Shown piece after piece: positions 6,346 to 64,000 of a stretch of DNA of 64,000 nt. A program made the position numbers and the translations under genes. The notes under the pieces were generated by a model. It saw nothing but the letters and a program-made list of their open reading frames with translations. It was not told the origin of the DNA and made no database searches. Source of the stretch: Podospora anserina (taxonomy: Eukaryota); contig CM030332.1 of assembly GCA_017654855.1 (NCBI GenBank), positions 4,402,001 through 4,466,000 of the forward strand. Direction: 5' to 3'. How positions within the stretch are numbered: position 1 is the first letter of the stretch; the number at the start of each line of letters is the position of its first letter.

Positions 6346-8191
6346 ATGATCCCGAGTTCGCCTGTCCCAGGCAGGTTGCCGGGCACGTCAGCCCCTGAGA
6401 CTGGGCTGGTCGATGTTGAGGGAACCACGAGATCTGGAAAGGAAGAGATAACAGGGGAAAGTGACTCTTCCGAAGTGAAAGAATTCAAGGAAGGTGGATA
6501 TGGCTGGTTAGTTTGCTAGCACTCTCCCATCAGTCTTCCTGCCAATCTGACAATGTATTCTCTAGGATGGTTGTCTTCTCAGTCGCCTTGGTCAACGCTC
6601 ATACATGGGGCCTAAACTCATCATATGCCGTGTTTCTTGCCTATTACTTGCGCTCTGGAGATATCGCTGGCTCTTCACCGCTTGCCTTTGCTTTTGTTGG
6701 CGGTCTCTCAATCTCGATCTGTGAGTCCATCCACACAGCAGCTCGCTTACCCAGGTTGCTTTTGACTGACACCTGTCACTCTTTTCAGCGCTGCTCGTCT
6801 CTCCACTGGTGACATGGTGTATAGGGAGGTTTGGAACCATACCTACGTTTCGGATAGGGGTTGTGTTCGAAGCGTGAGTCGGATCACTCTGATATCCAGC
6901 AATGCCTCCATGCTAACTCTCATCAAGCATCTCATTTGTGGGAGCTTCCTTTTCGACTCACATATATCACCTAATCCTAAGCCAAGGAGTGTGTTTTGGA
7001 ATTGGTTTGGGGTTTTGTTTTACAGCAACAGTCGGTGTAGTGCCCCAGTGGTTTGTTAAGCGACGTTCCTTTGCCAACGCTGTGGCGACATCTGGCTCTG
7101 GATTTGGTGGCCTCACATACTCCTTGGCCACCAATGCCATGATAACCAACCTGGGGCTGCCATGGGCTTTCAGAATCCTCGCCATTGTGGCGTTTGTGGT
7201 CAACGGTGGGTGCAGCTTGATCCTCCGTGATCGCAACAAGGCGGTCGGGGCGAAGCATGTGCCCTTCCATCTGGATCTCTTCAAACTACCTGAATATTGG
7301 CTATTCTTGGGTTGGGGCTTCTTTTCTCTCATGAGTTATGTCATTGTTGTATTTTCCATCACGGACTATGCTCAACAAGTTGGCTTCAGTGCCAGCCAGG
7401 GTTCCCTGGCTGCCGCCATCTTCAACTGTAAGTGGGCCACTTCTCTTCTCTTGCTCAAACAACTGTGCATACATACAAGATGCTAATTCATTTGGGGCTG
7501 GCAGTATCGCAAGGCATTGGAAGACCTCTCATTGGATTCGCCAGTGACCATGTTGGGAGACTCAACGTCGCTGGCCTCGGGACGCTCACCGCCGGCGTGG
7601 TTGCTTTCTTCTTGTGGGTCTTCGCCGGGAAGTCGTACCCAGGGTTGATCATATACGCCCTGTTCGGGGCGTTTGCCGGCATCATCTGGCCTTGTGTGGC
7701 TCCCGTTGGAGCTGAGGTGGTCGGTCTCTCACTACTACCTGCTGCTCTTTCAATTTATTGGCTTGTTCTCGTTCTTCCAGCCACCTTGTAAGCTTCCATT
7801 CACTTGGCCATGCATTTCTGCCCCACAGTGACTGACGCAAATCGCTGAACAGTGCCGAAGTGATTGGTCTGATGCTGAGAACATCTGGCGTTGATGGATA
7901 CCTGAATGTCCAGATTTTCACGGGGGTCATGTATATTGCCTCTTTCGTGTCCAGTACGTTCCTTTTTTCTTCAAACCTGTCTGCATTGTCACAATACATT
8001 CTAATTGCACGCGTTCTTTCATAGTCTGGCTTCTGAGGAGTTGGAAACTTCAACAAATGGAAATTTTGGGAACAATGGATGATCCGCTGGCGGTCGAGGC
8101 GCCCAATGCTGTCCAGTCGGGGGCAAAATCATCTGAAAACGGGCGTCCACGTTCGTACATCATGAATATGTTTGTTTTCAGGCATGTATAG
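6346..8191 (+). CDS. MFS transporter, monocarboxylate porter (Mch-like) family
   Basis: About 7 exons. N-terminal EGGYGW motif, hydrophobic TM segments, VVPQWFVKRRSFANAVATSGSGFGG and GRPLIGFASDHVGRLN (MFS motif A-like). The last exon ends ...MFVFRHV-TAG at 8191. Confidence 0.88.
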
Positions 8192-8482
8192 CAAGCAACG
8201 AGTACAAAATAGCTTCAGAATAATATTGGGAGGTCTGCGAATACAACCAACGGGCCCTGCGATACTACTTATAGGCCTTCCGAGGTGATCCGTCGATGTT
8301 AAAAGTTGTCAATGTCTTCTGACAAACCTATTGGATGCCTTGGAATGTGTCGATCTAACTTGACATCTCTATCATCTTGTCCACAATGTGTACCCCCAGC
8401 TACAAAACTATTACACCACCCAACGAATGAGAAGCTGTCCCACACAACTGGCTTTTCTTCCCTTCATCTTCATCTTCACCTT

Positions 8483-10838
8483 CTAAGCACTTGATAGCTC
8501 TATCGCCTTCGCCTTAGCCGCCTCGAAATCGTCAAAGGCGTAAAGCGGGAGGCCACTTTCCTCGATGAGTTTCTGTCCCTCCTTCTCGTTGGTCCCTCGA
8601 ATCCGTACCACGACGGGCACGCGTGGCGAGAGCTCCTTGAAAGCCATTATGATGCCGTTGGCGATCATGTCCCCCAAAGTCAGCCCGCCAAAAATATTCA
8701 CAAATATCACCCGGACCCTTGGATCTTTCAAGATAACCTCGAAGCCGTGCTTGACCGTCTCGCTAGTTGCTTTCCCGCCAGTATCGAGAAAATTAGTTGC
8801 GTGGCCCCCCAGGGCATCGACCGTGTTCATGGCGAGCCCTGCGCCATTGACCAAGGTTCCGATGGTCCCGTTACCCTCCAATTTGATGTATATAATGCCA
8901 CTCTTTTCCGCCTCGAGCTCAGAGGCATCCTCCACGGCTGTGTTTCTCAATTTCTGCAACTCGGTCTGCCGTCCGCAGCTTCGATAGGCTGCGTCGTCAA
9001 AGCCGAAGCGAGCACCAACCACCTTGATCTCACCAAGACGTTCCACAATCTCTGTCTCCATCAGATATGCCTCCTTTTCGTAAAATATGTCTGATAGTCT
9101 GTGGACAAGACGGCGGAGAGATTCATGGGCACTTTCCTTGAGACTGATGTGCAGGCGACTGGCAACACGCTCAATGGCAAGCTCGTCTGGACCGTGGCGA
9201 TAGTCGAAGGAGTAACGTTTTACCATCTTCTCGATCTGATCGTCATCCACGGTAGGAGCCGCAAGAATACACGGTGATCTGGTCGAACGATCGACCCCTA
9301 TGGCTAAGAAGCGCCTAGTGCCTAGCCCCGAGTAATGGCCGCAGTTAAGGCCTGCTTCGCGCAGCAGATCCATACAGTCGTCCTCGGACAATGTCAGGTG
9401 GCGCCGTTGCTGTGTGCACGGCTTTGCTAGAAACCGAGTCCTCGTTTGAGGTCTACGGACAGCCGTGTGGATCTGTCTACGCTGGTTTCCCAATTTGCCG
9501 CGACCAGCTGGGGAGTTCACCCCGTGTGTAGACCCTCCCAATCTTGCCTTGAAAGCTTCACCAAACTGACCTGGGTGTGTCACCATTGTCACACCAGCAG
9601 ACACCAGCGCTTCTATCTTCTCCTTCGCATCAGGTTCCCCAGCGATAGTGAAAGCTCCGGCATGACCCATGATACGACCGCGTGGCTCGTGAATCCCAGC
9701 GATAAGCCCGACTATTGGCCTATGGTTGAGCTGTTAGCTGACACAACCTGTGTAACGGCCATAATAAACCTACTTTGGAGTTTGTGTGCGAGAATGATAG
9801 TCTCGAATCCTATCCAGCGAGGTCGTTGTCAGCACACGAACACGGAATAGAAATGAAGGATTGGAAAAACAAGTCGGAATAATACCATTCGGCAGCATCC
9901 AGCTCACCCAAACCGCCGATTTCCCCGATTACAGCAATAGCCTCCGTATCACTGTCATTTTCTAAGACAGTGAAAGCCTCCCTCAGGTCTGTACCGGGAA
10001 CAATGTCACCGCCCACGCCTATACAAAGGCTCTGCCCAAGACCAGCTCTCGTGGTTGACGCCACAGTTTCATAGCTCAGCGTACCTGATTTAGCAATGAT
10101 TCCAATCTTCCCTGGCGAGAAGCAAGGCAAGGGCTGGAATCCTGGGACAATGTGACGTTAGTTCTCAGTACAGTAAGTGTGGATGTTGATATGGGCCATA
10201 TGCACACCGATTCGACACTTTCCCACGGCGGAGATGATCCCTGGGGAGTTTGGACCGACCAGGCGAGACTTGGATTGAGTCTTTAAGATAGAATGAATCT
10301 TTGAATGTCAGCATATTGGTTTTGGGATTTTCAGCAGTGGCGGCTCGCTTACTCGAAGCATGTCGTGCAGAGGAATATGCTCTGCTACTGCCACGATCAA
10401 AGGAACCTCGGCTTCAATGGCCTCCTCGATAGCACCTGGGGCCTGATGAGCTGCTACATAGATCGCTGTTGCATCTGGTTTGAGTTCTTTCATGGCCTAT
10501 CAGCTAGGTTAGCAGGGACTTGGGTGAGAGCACAGGCAGAGCACACAGACTGACTGAACCGTGGGGAGCACCGGAAGCCCGAGATGTTCTCCGGTCCGGC
10601 CGGGCCTCACGCCTCCAACAATGTTGGTCCCCCAAGCGATCGAGTCTTTGGCATTTGCTGTTGCCTGCTTGCCCGTGAAGCCTTGGAACATGACACGGGT
10701 GTGTGCTCCTATACGGAGATTGGGAAGAGTGTCGGCATAGCTCTGCAGTCTCACTGTTGTTCCAAAGTTTCGGCGCAGGGCTTGCTGCCGCGGCACGACG
10801 AATCGGGGCCCATATCGGATAGGCTGAACAACACGCAT
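8483..10838 (-). CDS. Succinyl-CoA synthetase-like alpha-beta fusion protein, mitochondrial-type, with truncated ATP-grasp
   Basis: Six exons. Arg-rich N-terminal presequence, then alpha motifs [41 protein letters not shown] and MGHAGA (phospho-His site). The same exon continues without a stop into beta motifs [34 protein letters not shown] and [10 protein letters not shown]. Confidence 0.9.
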
Positions 10839-11142: not shown

Positions 11143-11657
11143 TCACCACTGAAGCTCGCCCTTGACGCCGTTGGTGTTGGCCCCAGCCTGGCTGGGAGTT
11201 TTGTCCTCCTTAAACCCCAGGTTTTTGAAGTCGTCTTTTGCCATCAAATTACTACAAGTCCAGAACCGTCAGCTTCCCAAAACAAGTACTGCCATCGCAT
11301 CTTTGGCGGTTGAGGAGTGACGAACTGGTCCATCCGACACCCAAGATATGACTTGGCCAGTTGCCGGCATTCGTCCTGGTTGACGCCTTTGACCTTCTTG
11401 ATACAGCTTAGGTAACTCATCATGACATCTTTGCACTCTCCTACAAGTACGAGCGGCCATGAGTAAGACATATGGCAAACCATCGATCGGTCATGAAGTT
11501 GGACTAAACATACCGTCATGATCAAGGGGAAAACTCCCTCTTTGTGGTCTTGTGACAGGGGCGTAATGTCAGTGTCGATTGTAAAATTATAAAACAGTGC
11601 TACTCACGGGGTGGGCTTGGTATTTGGGAGAGCCCCAGGGCTTCCGAAGGTACTCAT
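11143..11657 (-). CDS. COX19: Cytochrome c oxidase assembly protein Cox19 (twin CX9C)
   Basis: Four exons splice to [66 protein letters not shown]...NLMAKDDFKNLGF. The [15 protein letters not shown] signature and two CX9C motifs are present. Confidence 0.93.
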
Positions 11658-58661: not shown

Positions 58662-60522
58662 ATGATCCCGCCCGCGCTCGCCCGCCTCTCGCGGGTATGG
58701 TTTCCCACCAAAAAAAGACCAGCATCGGGAGTAGAAAATGGGCATGCGAAGCTGATCCGTGCTGGGTTTTTGCGCCCTTCTCACGCCGGTATCTTCCACA
58801 TGCTTCCTCTGGGGAGGCGCGTGCAGACCAAGCTCGAGGAGCTGGTGGCCAGACATATGGAGCATATGTTGGGTGAGTCTCTCCCTCGGCGCACTAACCA
58901 TGGTCCCATGCTTACCCATGGCCACTGTCCCGGTCTCCAGCTGCCTCGAGGGTCTCGTTGTCGGCTGTATCAAGCCAGTCTCTCTGGGACAAGAGTGGGA
59001 GGCTTGAGAATACCGCGTCCGAGGTGTGTCAAATCGTCATGCCTTGTTTGAACACCTGGTGTTGACACTGCCTTCCCTGCAGCTCTTCAAGTTCTCTGAC
59101 CGTAAAAACGTTGGCTACCTTCTGGCCCCAACACATGAAGAGGAAATTACCGCTCTGGTGGCCCAGACGGCCAAGACAGCAAAGGATCTCCCCCTCAGGC
59201 TATTTCAGATTACACCCAAGTACCGCGATGAGTTTCGCCCGCGCCATGGCCTCCTCCGCGGACGAGAATTCGTTATGAAGGACCTCTATACCTTCGACAG
59301 CAGCAAAGAGTCCGCTCTAGAAACCTACGATAACGTTCGTCTGGTGTATTCGCAGATATTTGAGGAGATGAAACTCCCAGTGTTAGCAGCCAAGGCCAGC
59401 TCAGGTAACATGGGAGGTAATCTCAGCCACGAATACCATCTTCCCACGCCACTTGGAGAAGACCATGTTATCAGTTGTGATAGCTGTAACTATGTTGCTA
59501 ACGAGGAGGTGGCTGAATCAGTACTTTCTGACCAGGTTGTCAGTGACACGACCTTCCGCGTCTGGCGAGGCATCACCAAGGACCGAACCAAATTGGTCAA
59601 CGTCTGGTACCCCAAGCAAACACAACCCCTTGGTGGGGGTGCGTTGAGAGAGTATACGGACCTCGACATAAACATTGCGGAGGTGAAATCCATAATCCCT
59701 GACCTGGATGCCGGTGTTGAGGATGCGCTGCCGCTGTGGTCGACGGCGGCAGCTGCGGGTGGGACAGCTGTGGAGCTCGTGAACATTGTTGACTGCCGGC
59801 TTCCGCTGTCCTTCTCTGAGAGCCTGGTGGGAACTAAGCCAACCATCCCAAGTTGGCCCAAAAATTTGACGCCACGCAACCAAGTGCCAGTGTCGGTTTC
59901 AGTTCAAAACACCAACCAATGGAACAAAGACAGACCACTCAATCTCATTCGGATCCAGACAGGCGACAAGTGCCCTTCGTGCGCATCCGGACATCTAAAG
60001 GCAGAGAAGGCAATGGAGTTAGGACACACATTTTACCTTGGCACCCGGTACTCAGAAGCCCTGGGAGCTACAATCTTGGTGCCCAATGATGAGAGGAAAG
60101 CTGTGCCAATGCAGATGGGTTGCTATGGAATCGGTATCTCCCGGATTCTTGGCGCCGTCGCAGAGCTCCTGATGGACGAAAAGGGATTGAATTGGCCGGT
60201 GGCTATTGCACCCTACTCCTGTGTCATAGTTATGGGCGCTGGTGTCGACGAACAGGATGCAGTGGAGGTGTATCGCCAGATCAACCAGATAGGACGAGTT
60301 CAGGCCAAATATCTGGATGTCGTGCTGGACGACAGGCAAAAGACTCTACCCTGGAAGTTGATGGATGCCGATTTAGCTGGTTTCCCCATCATAGTCACGC
60401 TTGGGAGGGAGTGGCTTGCGGCAAAACGCCTCGAGGTACAATGTCGACGATTAGGGGTAAAGCAAGCAGTCGGGATAACCGAGCTACCACAGATAATAGC
60501 CAAGTTGCACGGAGACTTGTAG
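58662..60522 (+). CDS. Prolyl-tRNA synthetase, bacterial/mitochondrial type (Aim10-like)
   Basis: LIRAGFLRPSHAGIFHMLPLG, LAPTHEEEIT, KYRDEFRPRHGLLRGREFVMKDLY, ELGHTFYLGTRYS, MGCYGIGISR, WPVAIAPY. Two introns. Start codon uncertain. Confidence 0.92.
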
Positions 60523-61959
60523 GGCTGTATCCACTGTATAAATATACATCTGATGCGTGCTGCTATCACGACCAATAACACCAATGGGTTCTGCTTAATC
60601 TCGAAATCATTTATACCTACTCAACCAAGACGGGTGTGTGAGCAAGCAACTCCTACCTACCAAGCGTGCAAAACCCTCCTAGGATCATTATTTCGGCCAT
60701 TTTAAAGGAACATTGACTGTGCGGCTCTTGCTATCCCTGTAGACAGGTTGGGCGATCGTAAGTCGCCTTTGTTCCACCTGTCACTGCTATCCTTGAGACC
60801 TTCACAACCCGCTTTACAGGCTCGGTGTAGTAGTTCCATGTGGTTCCCGAACAAGTATTGACGCTGATCTAAGGGAGAGTGTTGCTCCTGGCTAAACTGA
60901 GATAGTGCCACTGACCTCGAACCCCGGCCTATCTGTAAAGGATTTCGGCATAATAAAACAGAACAAAGGGTACTTTTAAATGCTTTTAACAAGTTGATAA
61001 TAATATAGCTTTCAAAGTATAAAATAATTTATTTTAATGATTTTATAAATAATTTTGTTAACAAATAGAAAAGAAGTAATGTAAATCTTTTTAAATATAT
61101 TTTATTATTACATTTTTGATGTTTCTTTTAACTTTAAATAAAACAAATTTTATTAAATAATATCTAGAAAATATTCTGCTTATATAATTTTTATTTAACT
61201 AGTTACTATTAAAAATTAAAGTATTATTCTAATATAACTTTTAATATGTAAATTAAACTGTAATTTAGACTTCATAAATATAAAGTTCAGTTTATAATTA
61301 CTTTTATGTTATAAAACTTATTAGATATTTATGTATCATAATAGTACATTCAATATTTATGTAAAAATTGAAAGAAAACAATTAATAAAAATAAAGATAT
61401 TTCAATTATAATACTTTTTGTATTTATTTGTTAACTTTTCTACTTTAAGGAAATTAGTTAGTTAGGCTTTTAGAAGTAAAAAACCTATTTGAAATGTAGT
61501 TTTTTGGTTTTATAAATATATAAATATATTAAAGTTTAAAACAGTTTTAGTAATCTTAAATAATAAATTAATAATTATTATAATATTAGCTTAATACATT
61601 TACTTATATAGTCCTAACTACCTAGGTTTCGATGGGCAGTAAGCTTTCTTATAGAGCCTACTGTAAAATTTCTAAGGTTATAAAACATTTATATATTTAT
61701 TTTTTATAAGGCGTAACTATAATAATACGAAATTAATAAGAAGAAATGTAGTCGGTGAATTATTAAAGGTAGAAATTTTTTTAAAAAGAATTAATACGTA
61801 AATATTTATAACTTCGAACATCTTTAATTATTGTAAAAAACCCCTCTACCCAAAGAAACCTAATTATTTAGGTCTTTATAAATAGAGAAGATTCCTATAT
61901 AATTTACCAATCCTAAATAAACGAAATAATCAAATTAAACATAAAATTTATACTTCTTA

Positions 61960-62330
61960 TGTGACGAACCCCTGTACAGAACCTCTGAAAGGGATACGGG
62001 TTGAAGGTAACTTCTGACAATTGGTTCGGTGCAGCTAGACAGTGCACAACAAGATGTCTCAATGTAAACACAAGATACCGTGAATACAACTGTGGATTGC
62101 ATACTGCGGAACTGTCTATCTACACCAGCCAGTTCCTCTGTATATATAGACCTGTTTATCACCATTATCACCAGTGATAATGTCGATTATTACTCGTCGT
62201 TCACCGAAGGCTGGTGATAATTGTGATTATCACCCTTGGCGCTAGTGATAATCTGACTTCCCCACTTTTCCGTTCCTAGTGGTTAGACGGGTCGCGCCCC
62301 GCGCTCCCCACTTATGTCAGGTCCGTGACA
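61960..62330. mobile_element. Solo LTR (371 bp), little or no RIP, with 5-bp TSD
   Basis: Starts TGTGACG and ends CGTGACA (TG...CA, imperfect terminal inverted repeat). Flanked by TCTTA at 61955-61959 and 62331-62335. Confidence 0.9.
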
Positions 62331-62462
62331 TCTTACTAGGGTAAAAAAATATAATACCAAAAGAGTACGAGGTTAGCGGAAAGAAGTAAAGTTGATTAAT
62401 TTTCGGAAACAACGAAAATATTTCCTTTCCGCTTTAGTTTGAGGTATAGATTTACGCCTAAT

Positions 62463-62900
62463 TGTGACGAACCCCTATACAGAACCTTTAAAAGGGATAC
62501 GGGTTAAAGGTAACTTCTAATAATTAGTTCGGTGCAGCTAAACAGTATATAATAAAATGTCTTAATATAAATATAAAATACCGTAAATATAATTATAAAT
62601 TACATACTACGGAACTATCTATCTATATTAGCTAGTTCCTGTATATATATAAACTTCTTTTCCTAACTGTAATTCCTTTAATTAATATCCTAAGTATATT
62701 AATTACTTACGTTTAGCCTAATTAATATCCTAATTATATTAATTATCCCAGCCTAGCCTATTTAATTTAATTAATATTTTAATCGTATTAATTACCGTCC
62801 CTTACTATAATTAGCTTTCTTAAGTATTTTCCTAATTAGCCTTTACTCCCGTAATTCTATAACTAATCGTTATTCTCGTTTATATATTAGGGTTATAATA
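62463..62900. mobile_element. RIP-mutated related LTR copy
   Basis: The first ~190 bp align with the 61960 LTR through mostly CA>TA and TG>TA changes. The right end is tentative: GGTTATAATA could be a RIP-mutated G-G-T-C-G-T-G-A-C-A terminus. Confidence 0.75.
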
Positions 62901-64000
62901 CGATACTCCTCCTTTTAAACTAACGTCCCGGTAGTCCTAATTTTTTTTATTTTTTTTAATAACAACTTCCTTCCTTAATAAATTTTCCCTTCTTATTATT
63001 ATCTTTTCGCAATATTTAATTATATTAAGAAACCTACGCCAAAAGGCCTTTCCAGTACCCTTCGTTACTAAAATCTTATTACTATTACTTTTATTTTTAA
63101 TAACAAAATACTTCCTTATTTGTTTTACGAAACCCTTAGAATTTTTAATTATTACACTTTCGAATACTTTTTTAGATATAACTACTATATTAGTTCTAAT
63201 CGTTTCGACTATAATATCCTGGATCTTACTTCCGCCCTAATAACTTTCCTTCGTTATTAAAAGGAAAAACTAAATATTAATAAGCGAAAAGCCCATACGA
63301 CTATACTATAAACTACTTCAAAGCTTTCGCGAATAGAGACTTAGCGTTATACTTTAGTCGCTAAATTCCGTTATATTACGGCCCGTAAAGAACGGTTAAT
63401 CGAGGATTTAAAACGGAAGGAAGTATAAATTACCTTTATTACTAATCTTCTTCTAACCTTTTCTCTTAATTGGGCCTCCGTAATACTAAACTAGCCCGAC
63501 CTAAACCTTCCGAACGACCTATCCTTTAACTTTCCGCTTAATTCCGACCTTTTCCTAAAGTCGGCCGTTAGTACTTCCCGGAGTTCCCTACCTCCAGCTA
63601 CCCCGGATTTTTCTAACGGTAATCCTTTTATTTTTTAAGGTAATTAATATTTATAATATTATTTACGCCTAGATTCCTTCGTACTTATTAACTTTATAGT
63701 ATAGTACGTAGTACGTTAATTACTACGTTAAAAGTATAAATTTAATTCCTATCGAGGTTCTTTTATATTTATATTATAAATATTTTTCCATAACTTAAAT
63801 ATAGTTCTTTTTATTTATTTAGGTTTTAATCGGTTTAGGTATTACTAATAAAATTCTTTTTATTTATTTAAGTAATTAAGGTTTACTTTTAATTCCTATA
63901 AATTATTTATAACCGAATACTTTAATTAATTAACTAAATACTTTAATTAATTTTTATTAAACCATAAATTTAATATTTCTTTTATATTACACTTCTTTTT

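Follow-up and report, generated by a model that had tools for sequence, protein, structure and literature searches.

Is the fused succinyl-CoA synthetase-like gene of Podospora anserina a composite mitochondrial precursor?

When two subunits of an enzyme come to be encoded in one reading frame, is the product one chain or two? The question is raised by a gene of Podospora anserina that joins halves resembling the two subunits, alpha and beta, of succinyl-CoA synthetase (SCS). This gene lies in a 64,000-nucleotide stretch of contig CM030332.1 (assembly GCA_017654855.1, positions 4,402,001 to 4,466,000 of the forward strand), called here the window; all positions given are those of the window. 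An initial annotation, made from the DNA letters, had proposed that the gene encodes a precursor that enters mitochondria by means of its N-terminal signal and is cut within a basic linker into stoichiometric alpha and beta chains. Here, we argue that a single spliced message carries both halves, that part of the linker is a retained presequence, and that cleavage by MPP, the mitochondrial processing peptidase, is plausible, with a probability of roughly 0.55. The protein itself appears to be a divergent SCS-like paralogue, not the ordinary enzyme of the tricarboxylic acid (TCA) cycle.

The fused gene occupies 10838-8483 on the minus strand and has six coding exons and a product of 683 residues. 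The exons, as defined by the mapping of a public protein (P0001), the joints of spliced contigs and the sequence itself, are:

10838-10551, minus strand: exon 1
10496-10353, minus strand: exon 2
10298-10208, minus strand: exon 3
10141-9886, minus strand: exon 4
9809-9774, minus strand: exon 5
9719-8486, minus strand: exon 6, followed by the stop codon at 8485-8483

Together these exons sum to 2049 nt, or 683 codons, and P0001 (683 residues, from public assemblies) maps at 100% identity to six blocks of the window. Contigs X1, X8 and X11, which come from three studies, lack the five introns, which begin with GT and end with AG when read on the minus strand and measure 54, 76, 66, 54 and 54 nt. 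Each of these contigs also spans 8300-9718 without a joint, which places the linker inside the spliced form; a fourth contig, X16, is unspliced and identical to the window. The four come from different runs among 24 listed sequencing runs. Half or more of the words sampled from the stretch are present in 21 of these runs, of which 15 (nine studies) contain a share of 0.83-0.85 and six contain every word. None of the 24 is recorded as RNA, and the RNA nature of the 15 is our guess, set beside the observation that the contigs are spliced; such contigs reveal neither transcript ends nor rare isoforms.

One spliced mRNA form thus carries both the alpha-like and the beta-like half, as the initial annotation had supposed when it placed them in one gene. 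Its further statement that the two halves share one exon needs amending. The stop-to-stop frame at 8483..9733 (minus strand, 416 residues) does hold the linker and the whole beta-like half with no stop between them, but only the last 54 residues of the alpha-like half, the rest of which is spread over five upstream exons. Members of the protein cluster name the gene Pa_1_12650 (Podospora anserina species complex), with XP_964070 as the Neurospora crassa relative. Several Podospora and Triangularia records carry a 634-residue model that lacks the first 49 residues and hence the presequence-like start; the spliced contigs back the 683-residue form, not this shorter model. The public label "succinyl-CoA ligase subunit alpha" is probably misleading.

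From N to C terminus, the protein comprises a presequence-like start, an SCS-alpha-like half, a linker of 57 residues and an SCS-beta-like half. Its features are as follows (all on the minus strand):

10734..10838, minus strand: presequence-like start, about residues 1-35, containing RRNFGTT; judged from composition
9557..10733, minus strand: SCS-alpha-like half, about residues 36-326, with five introns; from Pfam, NCBIfam and Foldseek
9664-9662, minus strand: H291, the predicted phosphohistidine of the alpha-like half; from alignment
9386..9556, minus strand: linker, residues 327-383, with 13 Lys/Arg and no Asp/Glu; predicted to be disordered
9464..9484, minus strand: motif 1, QRRQIHT, residues 351-357, with the core R353-x-hydrophobic-H356-T357; from conservation
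9389..9412, minus strand: motif 2, QQRRHLTL, residues 375-382; from conservation and from alignment with stand-alone beta proteins
8486..9397, minus strand: SCS-beta-like half, residues 380-683, a truncated ATP-grasp remnant followed by a C-terminal CoA-ligase domain
8854-8504, minus strand: the C-terminal CoA-ligase domain, residues 561-677; PF00549
9317..9352, minus strand: site of an absent ATP-grasp segment, residues 395-406; from a MAFFT alignment of 24 rows

The composition of the linker, with its two motifs resembling presequence ends, stands as first described, at 9556-9386. The absence of acidic residues is not in itself special to the linker, as a second acid-free run of 57 residues occurs at residues 142-198. 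More telling is the charge: among all 20-residue windows of the protein, the linker contains the two that rank highest in net positive charge (+7 and +6), and the N-terminal start reaches +5, without an acidic residue, over the 20 residues from position 12. An AlphaFold2 model built on 24 aligned relatives (mean pLDDT, the per-residue confidence score, 67.5; pTM, the predicted template-modelling score, 0.68) gives pLDDT below 50 at residues 334-377 and opens the beta half with a predicted strand at 379-381. At the N terminus, a loose pattern (R-any-hydrophobic-small/hydroxylated, as in RRxFST) falls within the first 70 residues in 14 of the 24 relatives, a count that also takes in looser strings such as RLRRYGS.

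The 24 aligned relatives, at 61-89% identity to the window's protein, have linkers of 51-65 residues with 8-15 Lys/Arg and 0-6 Asp/Glu. The sequence of the linker varies among them and its basic, acid-poor make-up is kept. Even the closest relative, P0002, differs at 18 of the 57 positions, yet QQRRHL and one block of 13 residues are identical in the two. Within motif 1, Q351 is found in 23/24 relatives, R353 in 24/24, H356 in 22/24 and T357 in 20/24; farther on, R361 is present in all 24, Q376 in 22 and R378 in 23. The orthologue comparison that the initial annotation had called for returned a conserved basic linker and both arginine motifs, so that one of its own refuting conditions, the absence of these motifs from orthologue linkers, did not hold.

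A wider survey took in every junction-spanning protein of the collected set (165); these reduce to 157 distinct linker segments and include representatives at no more than 50% identity and from two phyla. The core R-x-hydrophobic-H of motif 1 occurs in 148 of the 157 (mean 13.5 in shuffled segments) and the core R-x-[LIFV]-x-[LIVF] of motif 2 in 146 (mean 6.3). Both cores occur in order in 142 of the 157, against a mean of 2.2 in 200 shuffles, a contrast that overstates the significance, as the junctions are kin and the counts are not independent. The segment between the cores has a median length of 21 residues and median counts of 6 Lys/Arg and 0 Asp/Glu, and holds no acidic residue in 98 of the 142. 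Both motifs are also found in Elsinoe, Nemania, Coniella and two species of Mycena.

Where did the linker come from? A MAFFT alignment of the beta half was made with 24 rows, comprising 8 of the 24 fused beta halves and 16 stand-alone beta-type proteins, chosen from 150 listed. In it, a 12-residue segment of the fused protein is aligned with LQQRRHLHLPEQQ of a stand-alone protein of Fusarium oxysporum, and with KQQIRQLSIHEYQ and LQQWRLLNVHEYQ of mitochondrial-type beta proteins. QQRRHL aligns with the final presequence residues of the stand-alone proteins, just before their mature start, and Met1 of the four clearly bacterial rows aligns at L380 (P0350, a fifth row labelled bacterial, groups with fungal stand-alone proteins). 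The initial annotation had stated that beta precursors end their presequence in a similar pattern, and this is borne out: in 12 of 18 rows listed, R-x-L-x-hydrophobic-H/Q-E occurs at residues 19-50, these 12 being stand-alone beta-type proteins with an N-terminal extension and the other six gene-call fragments of fusions or chance matches downstream. Because motif 2 aligns with the end of these presequences, the second half of the linker is, on the alignment, a retained beta presequence, and motif 2 a relic of its end. Motif 1 is mostly confined to the fused family, and it looks like the RRxF(S/G)T at the N terminus of these same proteins, in their presequence; among stand-alone proteins, P0389 carries a comparable RSFHA, which lies about 28 residues upstream of its junction.

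The reading that we favor is that of a composite mitochondrial precursor whose linker is cut by MPP. In this scheme, an alpha-type and a beta-type gene would have become one reading frame, with the beta presequence kept as the junction. The N-terminal presequence would take the precursor into the matrix, where MPP would cut the linker at one or both of the R-x-hydrophobic sites. The first putative cut point follows R353-Q354, and the second follows R378-H379 or lies one residue farther on. An alpha-like product of about 35 kDa would be separated from a beta-like one of about 33 kDa, the two would assemble as an SCS-type heterodimer, and a piece of about 25 residues between the sites would be discarded.

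An argument for such cleavage is that both motifs, which lie where the protein most resembles a presequence, have an arginine two positions ahead of an aromatic or hydrophobic residue, and so fit the R-2 rule of MPP. As described in excerpts of Friedl et al. 2020 (PMC8734313), MPP cuts yeast Arg5,6 internally at an R-2 motif (arginine at -2, aromatic residue at +1). The cut falls inside an internal segment resembling a mitochondrial targeting sequence (MTS), and requires this segment as well as a strong N-terminal presequence. The composite precursors described earlier all carry such junctions, according to the same excerpts.

Several points weigh against the proposed cleavage, besides the kinship of the junctions mentioned above. 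The mitochondrial location of the fused protein is suggested by composition only. The ordered pair of cores is absent from 15 of the 157 distinct junctions, and those of Hypomontagnella and Teloschistes look degenerate. Because L380-x-L382, a part of motif 2, falls on the strand predicted to open the beta half, the conservation of this motif is partly structural. A histidine at +2, following the hydrophobic position of motif 1, is atypical of MPP sites. Furthermore, SCS is an obligate alpha/beta heterodimer, so a tethered chain could work uncut. Fused enzymes that are not cut include ATP-citrate lyase and some of the ADP-forming acetyl-CoA synthetases, which have a different domain order and a complete ATP-grasp region.

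Two other readings of the motifs were tried. Peroxisomal targeting signals (PTS1 or PTS2) were rejected by eye against the consensus patterns, and the R-10 reading of motif 1, with successive cuts by MPP and Oct1, was not adopted, the hydroxylated residue being one position off the octapeptide pattern.

The most serious alternative, which we rate as possible and clearly less probable than cleavage, is that the protein remains a single chain and that the linker, a remnant of the beta presequence, serves it as a flexible tether. The two halves would assemble in any case, and a single predicted model shows the SCS fold of each, alpha and beta; the first strand of the beta half takes in part of motif 2, and a linker of 51-65 residues would probably be long enough to span the heterodimer. 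A passive tether, however, leaves unexplained why two Arg-before-hydrophobic motifs at fixed spacing persist over class-level distances, and why one of them matches the presequence end of stand-alone beta proteins; in addition, the composite precursors listed in the excerpts of PMC8734313 have just such junctions. On this alternative, the basicity and the arginine motifs of the uncut chain would be kept because they bind an import receptor as an internal MTS-like segment, or because they make contact with the enzyme.

Within the cleavage reading, a more far-reaching version seems unlikely to us: that the gene encodes an ancient fused paralogue, shared by Ascomycota and Basidiomycota, from which two MPP cuts remove a retained internal presequence, and which gave up the nucleotide half-reaction. 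Its CoA and phosphohistidine chemistry would then involve a different phosphoryl partner, or the pair would respond to acyl-CoA and not be an energy-conserving ligase. If true, an MPP-matured pair without the nucleotide half-reaction would be a previously undescribed mitochondrial activity in Neurospora and Podospora.

Could two products arise without proteolysis? An internal promoter or start codon might allow the second half of the linker to serve as the presequence of a separate beta-like protein, an idea that we consider very improbable for the window's gene. Many Leotiomycete relatives do have a methionine after motif 1 (HTM RR..RP...), followed by a complete-looking presequence, and gene callers often begin their models there. 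The window's protein and other Sordariales, however, have no methionine at this place (HTAVRRP). The three spliced contigs run unbroken across the linker, a weak argument in that contigs are blind to transcript starts. Finally, the notion of an artefact, in which the linker would be an intron that went unrecognised, a fault of assembly or the junction of a decaying pseudogene, scarcely deserves credence: a GTCAGT...CTGAC...AG string does extend over 9570-9383, but it measures 188 nt, not a multiple of three, so that its removal breaks the frame, no contig skips it, the unspliced DNA contig agrees with the window throughout, and the linker is in frame in 24/24 aligned relatives and in the 165 junction-spanning proteins.

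How does the proposed MPP-cut precursor compare with known systems? Its closest parallels, according to the excerpts of PMC8734313, are Arg5,6 of Saccharomyces cerevisiae and arg-6 of N. crassa, in which a single precursor likewise contains two cooperating enzymes, a presequence at its N terminus and an MTS-like R-2 junction in its interior. The cut of Arg5,6 was shown by experiment, whereas that of the SCS-like protein is proposed from sequence. The parts of Arg5,6 are unrelated enzymes, while those of the fused protein are two subunits of one enzyme type, and here, unlike in Arg5,6, homology links the junction to the presequence of the downstream subunit. Internal MTS-like segments with an MPP motif at the junction are also described in these excerpts for Atp25, Etp1, Rsm22-Cox11, SPAC22A12.08c (Schizosaccharomyces pombe) and rice RPS14, and Atp25 is said there to yield two functionally unrelated polypeptides. 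The word "succinyl" does not occur in the main text of PMC8734313, and full-text literature searches returned no report of an SCS-type alpha-beta fusion and nothing usable on the SCS genes of Podospora or Neurospora.

Etp1, Rsm22-Cox11, SPAC22A12.08c and RPS14 likewise yield functionally unrelated polypeptides. Few composite precursors with internal MPP cuts are known, and the fused gene is a candidate addition to this class, on an SCS-like paralogue. What the locus would add is a readable origin for the internal signal, the downstream subunit having kept its own presequence at the gene fusion. The gene is conserved in N. crassa and P. anserina, both of which are genetically tractable.

The stand-alone proteins of fungi that we call alpha' and beta' (such as F. 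oxysporum P0326 and Cordyceps CDD83_270/CDD83_272) are the nearest stand-alone kin of both halves. The presequences of the beta' proteins end in QQRRHLHL-type motifs, like motif 2 of the linker. Unlike the fused protein, alpha' and beta' are encoded by separate genes and the ATP-grasp region is present; this region is complete in P0315 of Rhizodiscina, and the GGRGK loop is lacking in several others. Fusions among NDP-forming acyl-CoA synthetases also unite alpha-type and beta-type domains in one chain, as in the fused protein, which gives weak NCBIfam matches to acetate--CoA ligase models.

If the chains are released, would they form an ordinary SCS? This part of the initial annotation is not supported. 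Canonical SCS (SucD/SucC; yeast LSC1/LSC2; human SUCLG1 with SUCLA2 or SUCLG2) has the same folds and domain families, but separate chains and a complete ATP-grasp region, whereas the fused protein has joined halves and about 85 fewer ATP-grasp residues. Among Pfam domains, CoA_binding and one Ligase_CoA fall in the upstream frames and another Ligase_CoA in the beta-like half, and in a PDB sequence search with the 416-residue frame, SCS alpha chains match residues 3-60 and beta chains about 140-410. The alpha half has PF02629 (the CoA-binding Rossmann domain; E 8.8e-17), PF00549 and PF13607 (Succ_CoA_lig) over residues 46-326 and a Foldseek template-modelling (TM) score of 0.76 to SCS alpha chains. 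Even so, it falls below the NCBIfam cut-offs (NF004230, sucD, 290.9 bits against 336; TIGR01019, 286 against 353.2).

With the beta half, Escherichia coli SucC aligns only from SucC residue 108 on, and ATP-grasp_2 (PF08442) matches at profile positions 108-196 of 202 only, with an E value of 0.21; P0315 of Rhizodiscina, in comparison, covers positions 2-201 with 214 bits. The missing part amounts to about 85 alignment columns, which hold the glycine-rich GGRGK-type loop of canonical beta subunits. This gap is common to 8/8 fused rows of the beta alignment, and the short form occurs in all 24 aligned fused relatives. The NCBIfam score lies under its cut-off (NF001913, sucC, 207.6 bits against 370), and Foldseek aligns only 286 columns of SCS beta chains, which are about 390 residues long, with a TM score of about 0.63. 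The C-terminal CoA-ligase domain is present (PF00549).

The catalytic residues tell a similar story, their roles (His246-alpha, Glu208-alpha and Glu197-beta) being taken from an excerpt of PMC10342173. His246-alpha corresponds to H291 and Glu208-alpha to E248, both mapped through a PDB alignment and both present in 24/24 relatives; Glu197-beta, a residue of the nucleotide site mapped alike in two alignments, corresponds to E493, which is kept in only 12/24. Other residues occupy the positions aligned with N199 and D213 of E. coli, which we take to be metal ligands. The fused enzyme thus appears to keep the CoA/phosphohistidine site and to have lost the usual nucleotide site, and because of this combination it is probably not the SCS of the TCA cycle. 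An intact phosphohistidine/CoA site beside a truncated ATP-grasp region raises the question of its role in mitochondria. We infer that the host genome also has canonical SCS genes.

Phylogeny fits a divergent paralogue. In the beta tree (24 rows), the fused proteins form one clade, supported by an SH-aLRT of 100 and set off by a long stem (1.2 changes per column), and this clade sits inside the starred clade of fungal beta-like proteins. In the alpha tree (47 rows), the fused proteins and three short models from Dothideomycetes and Cirrosporium make up a starred clade, apart from that of four yeast LSC1 proteins. Two yeast LSC1 proteins, 80% identical to each other, share 52-53% identity with the fused alpha half, and the stand-alone alpha' group, within which identity is 68-85%, shares 54-58% with it.

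How widespread is the fusion? Fused proteins of about 630-710 residues are found throughout the best 120 matches, in Sordariomycetes (N. crassa included) and Leotiomycetes. Ten more distant representatives were checked, their fused status being judged by the junction sequence; they bring in Nemania, Hypomontagnella, Coniella, Elsinoe, Teloschistes and one further record, as well as Mycena chlorophos and M. indigotica of the Basidiomycota. The fusion thus extends over Sordariomycetes, Leotiomycetes, Dothideomycetes, Lecanoromycetes and Mycena. In Hyaloscypha variabilis, a fused protein (P0058) coexists with a stand-alone alpha' (P0178).

Three candidates were not counted as fused relatives. P0285 of Atractiella (687 residues) lacks the GHAG loop and differs in its N-terminal part. 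P0420 of Fusarium graminearum (706 residues) merges the divergent beta-like FGSG_13240 with a membrane protein, FGSG_13241, in one annotation, the two being separate in others. P0345 of Trichoderma sp. has a different N-terminal partner: in this protein of 662 residues, a FAS1-like/MaoC-type dehydratase region precedes a beta'-type protein with a nearly complete ATP-grasp region. The arrangement hints that the stand-alone paralogues may act on unsaturated or hydroxy dicarboxyl-CoA esters.

Two further sets of gene models bear watching. P0140-P0144 and P0148 are alpha-only models of 301-372 residues from Dothideomycetes and others, nested within the fused clade, and they stop soon after "...SGR.V.KI", early in the linker; they may reflect a linker intron missed by gene callers, or a truly split form. 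Stand-alone alpha' and beta' genes, for their part, seemingly share a contig in four pairs (P0186/P0329, P0152/P0328, P0181/P0315 and P0253/P0430), and the pair of Cordyceps sp. RAO-2017 bears the locus tags CDD83_272 and CDD83_270. In Aspergillus sclerotioniger, Rhizodiscina lignyota and Ophiocordyceps camponoti-floridani, the contigs given for the two proteins are of equal length. Such an arrangement suggests that a linked gene pair could be the precursor state of the fusion.

The neighbors of the fused gene in the window (a major facilitator superfamily (MFS) transporter, a LIM-domain protein, a SUMO-like protein and a dynamin) give no functional hint. The MFS transporter gene, at 6917-7791 on the plus strand, is convergent with the fused gene, whose 3' end it faces. 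The spliced contigs extend over both adjoining neighbors, and the untranslated regions probably overlap or abut. Just upstream of the fused gene, a small frame at 11244-11603 (minus strand) has cysteines spaced, by eye, like those of a twin Cx9C intermembrane-space protein, and gave no match in Pfam. At the far end of the window, from 60001 to 64000, the G+C content drops from about 0.53-0.58 to 0.31-0.34, in what may be a repeat-degraded, AT-rich block.

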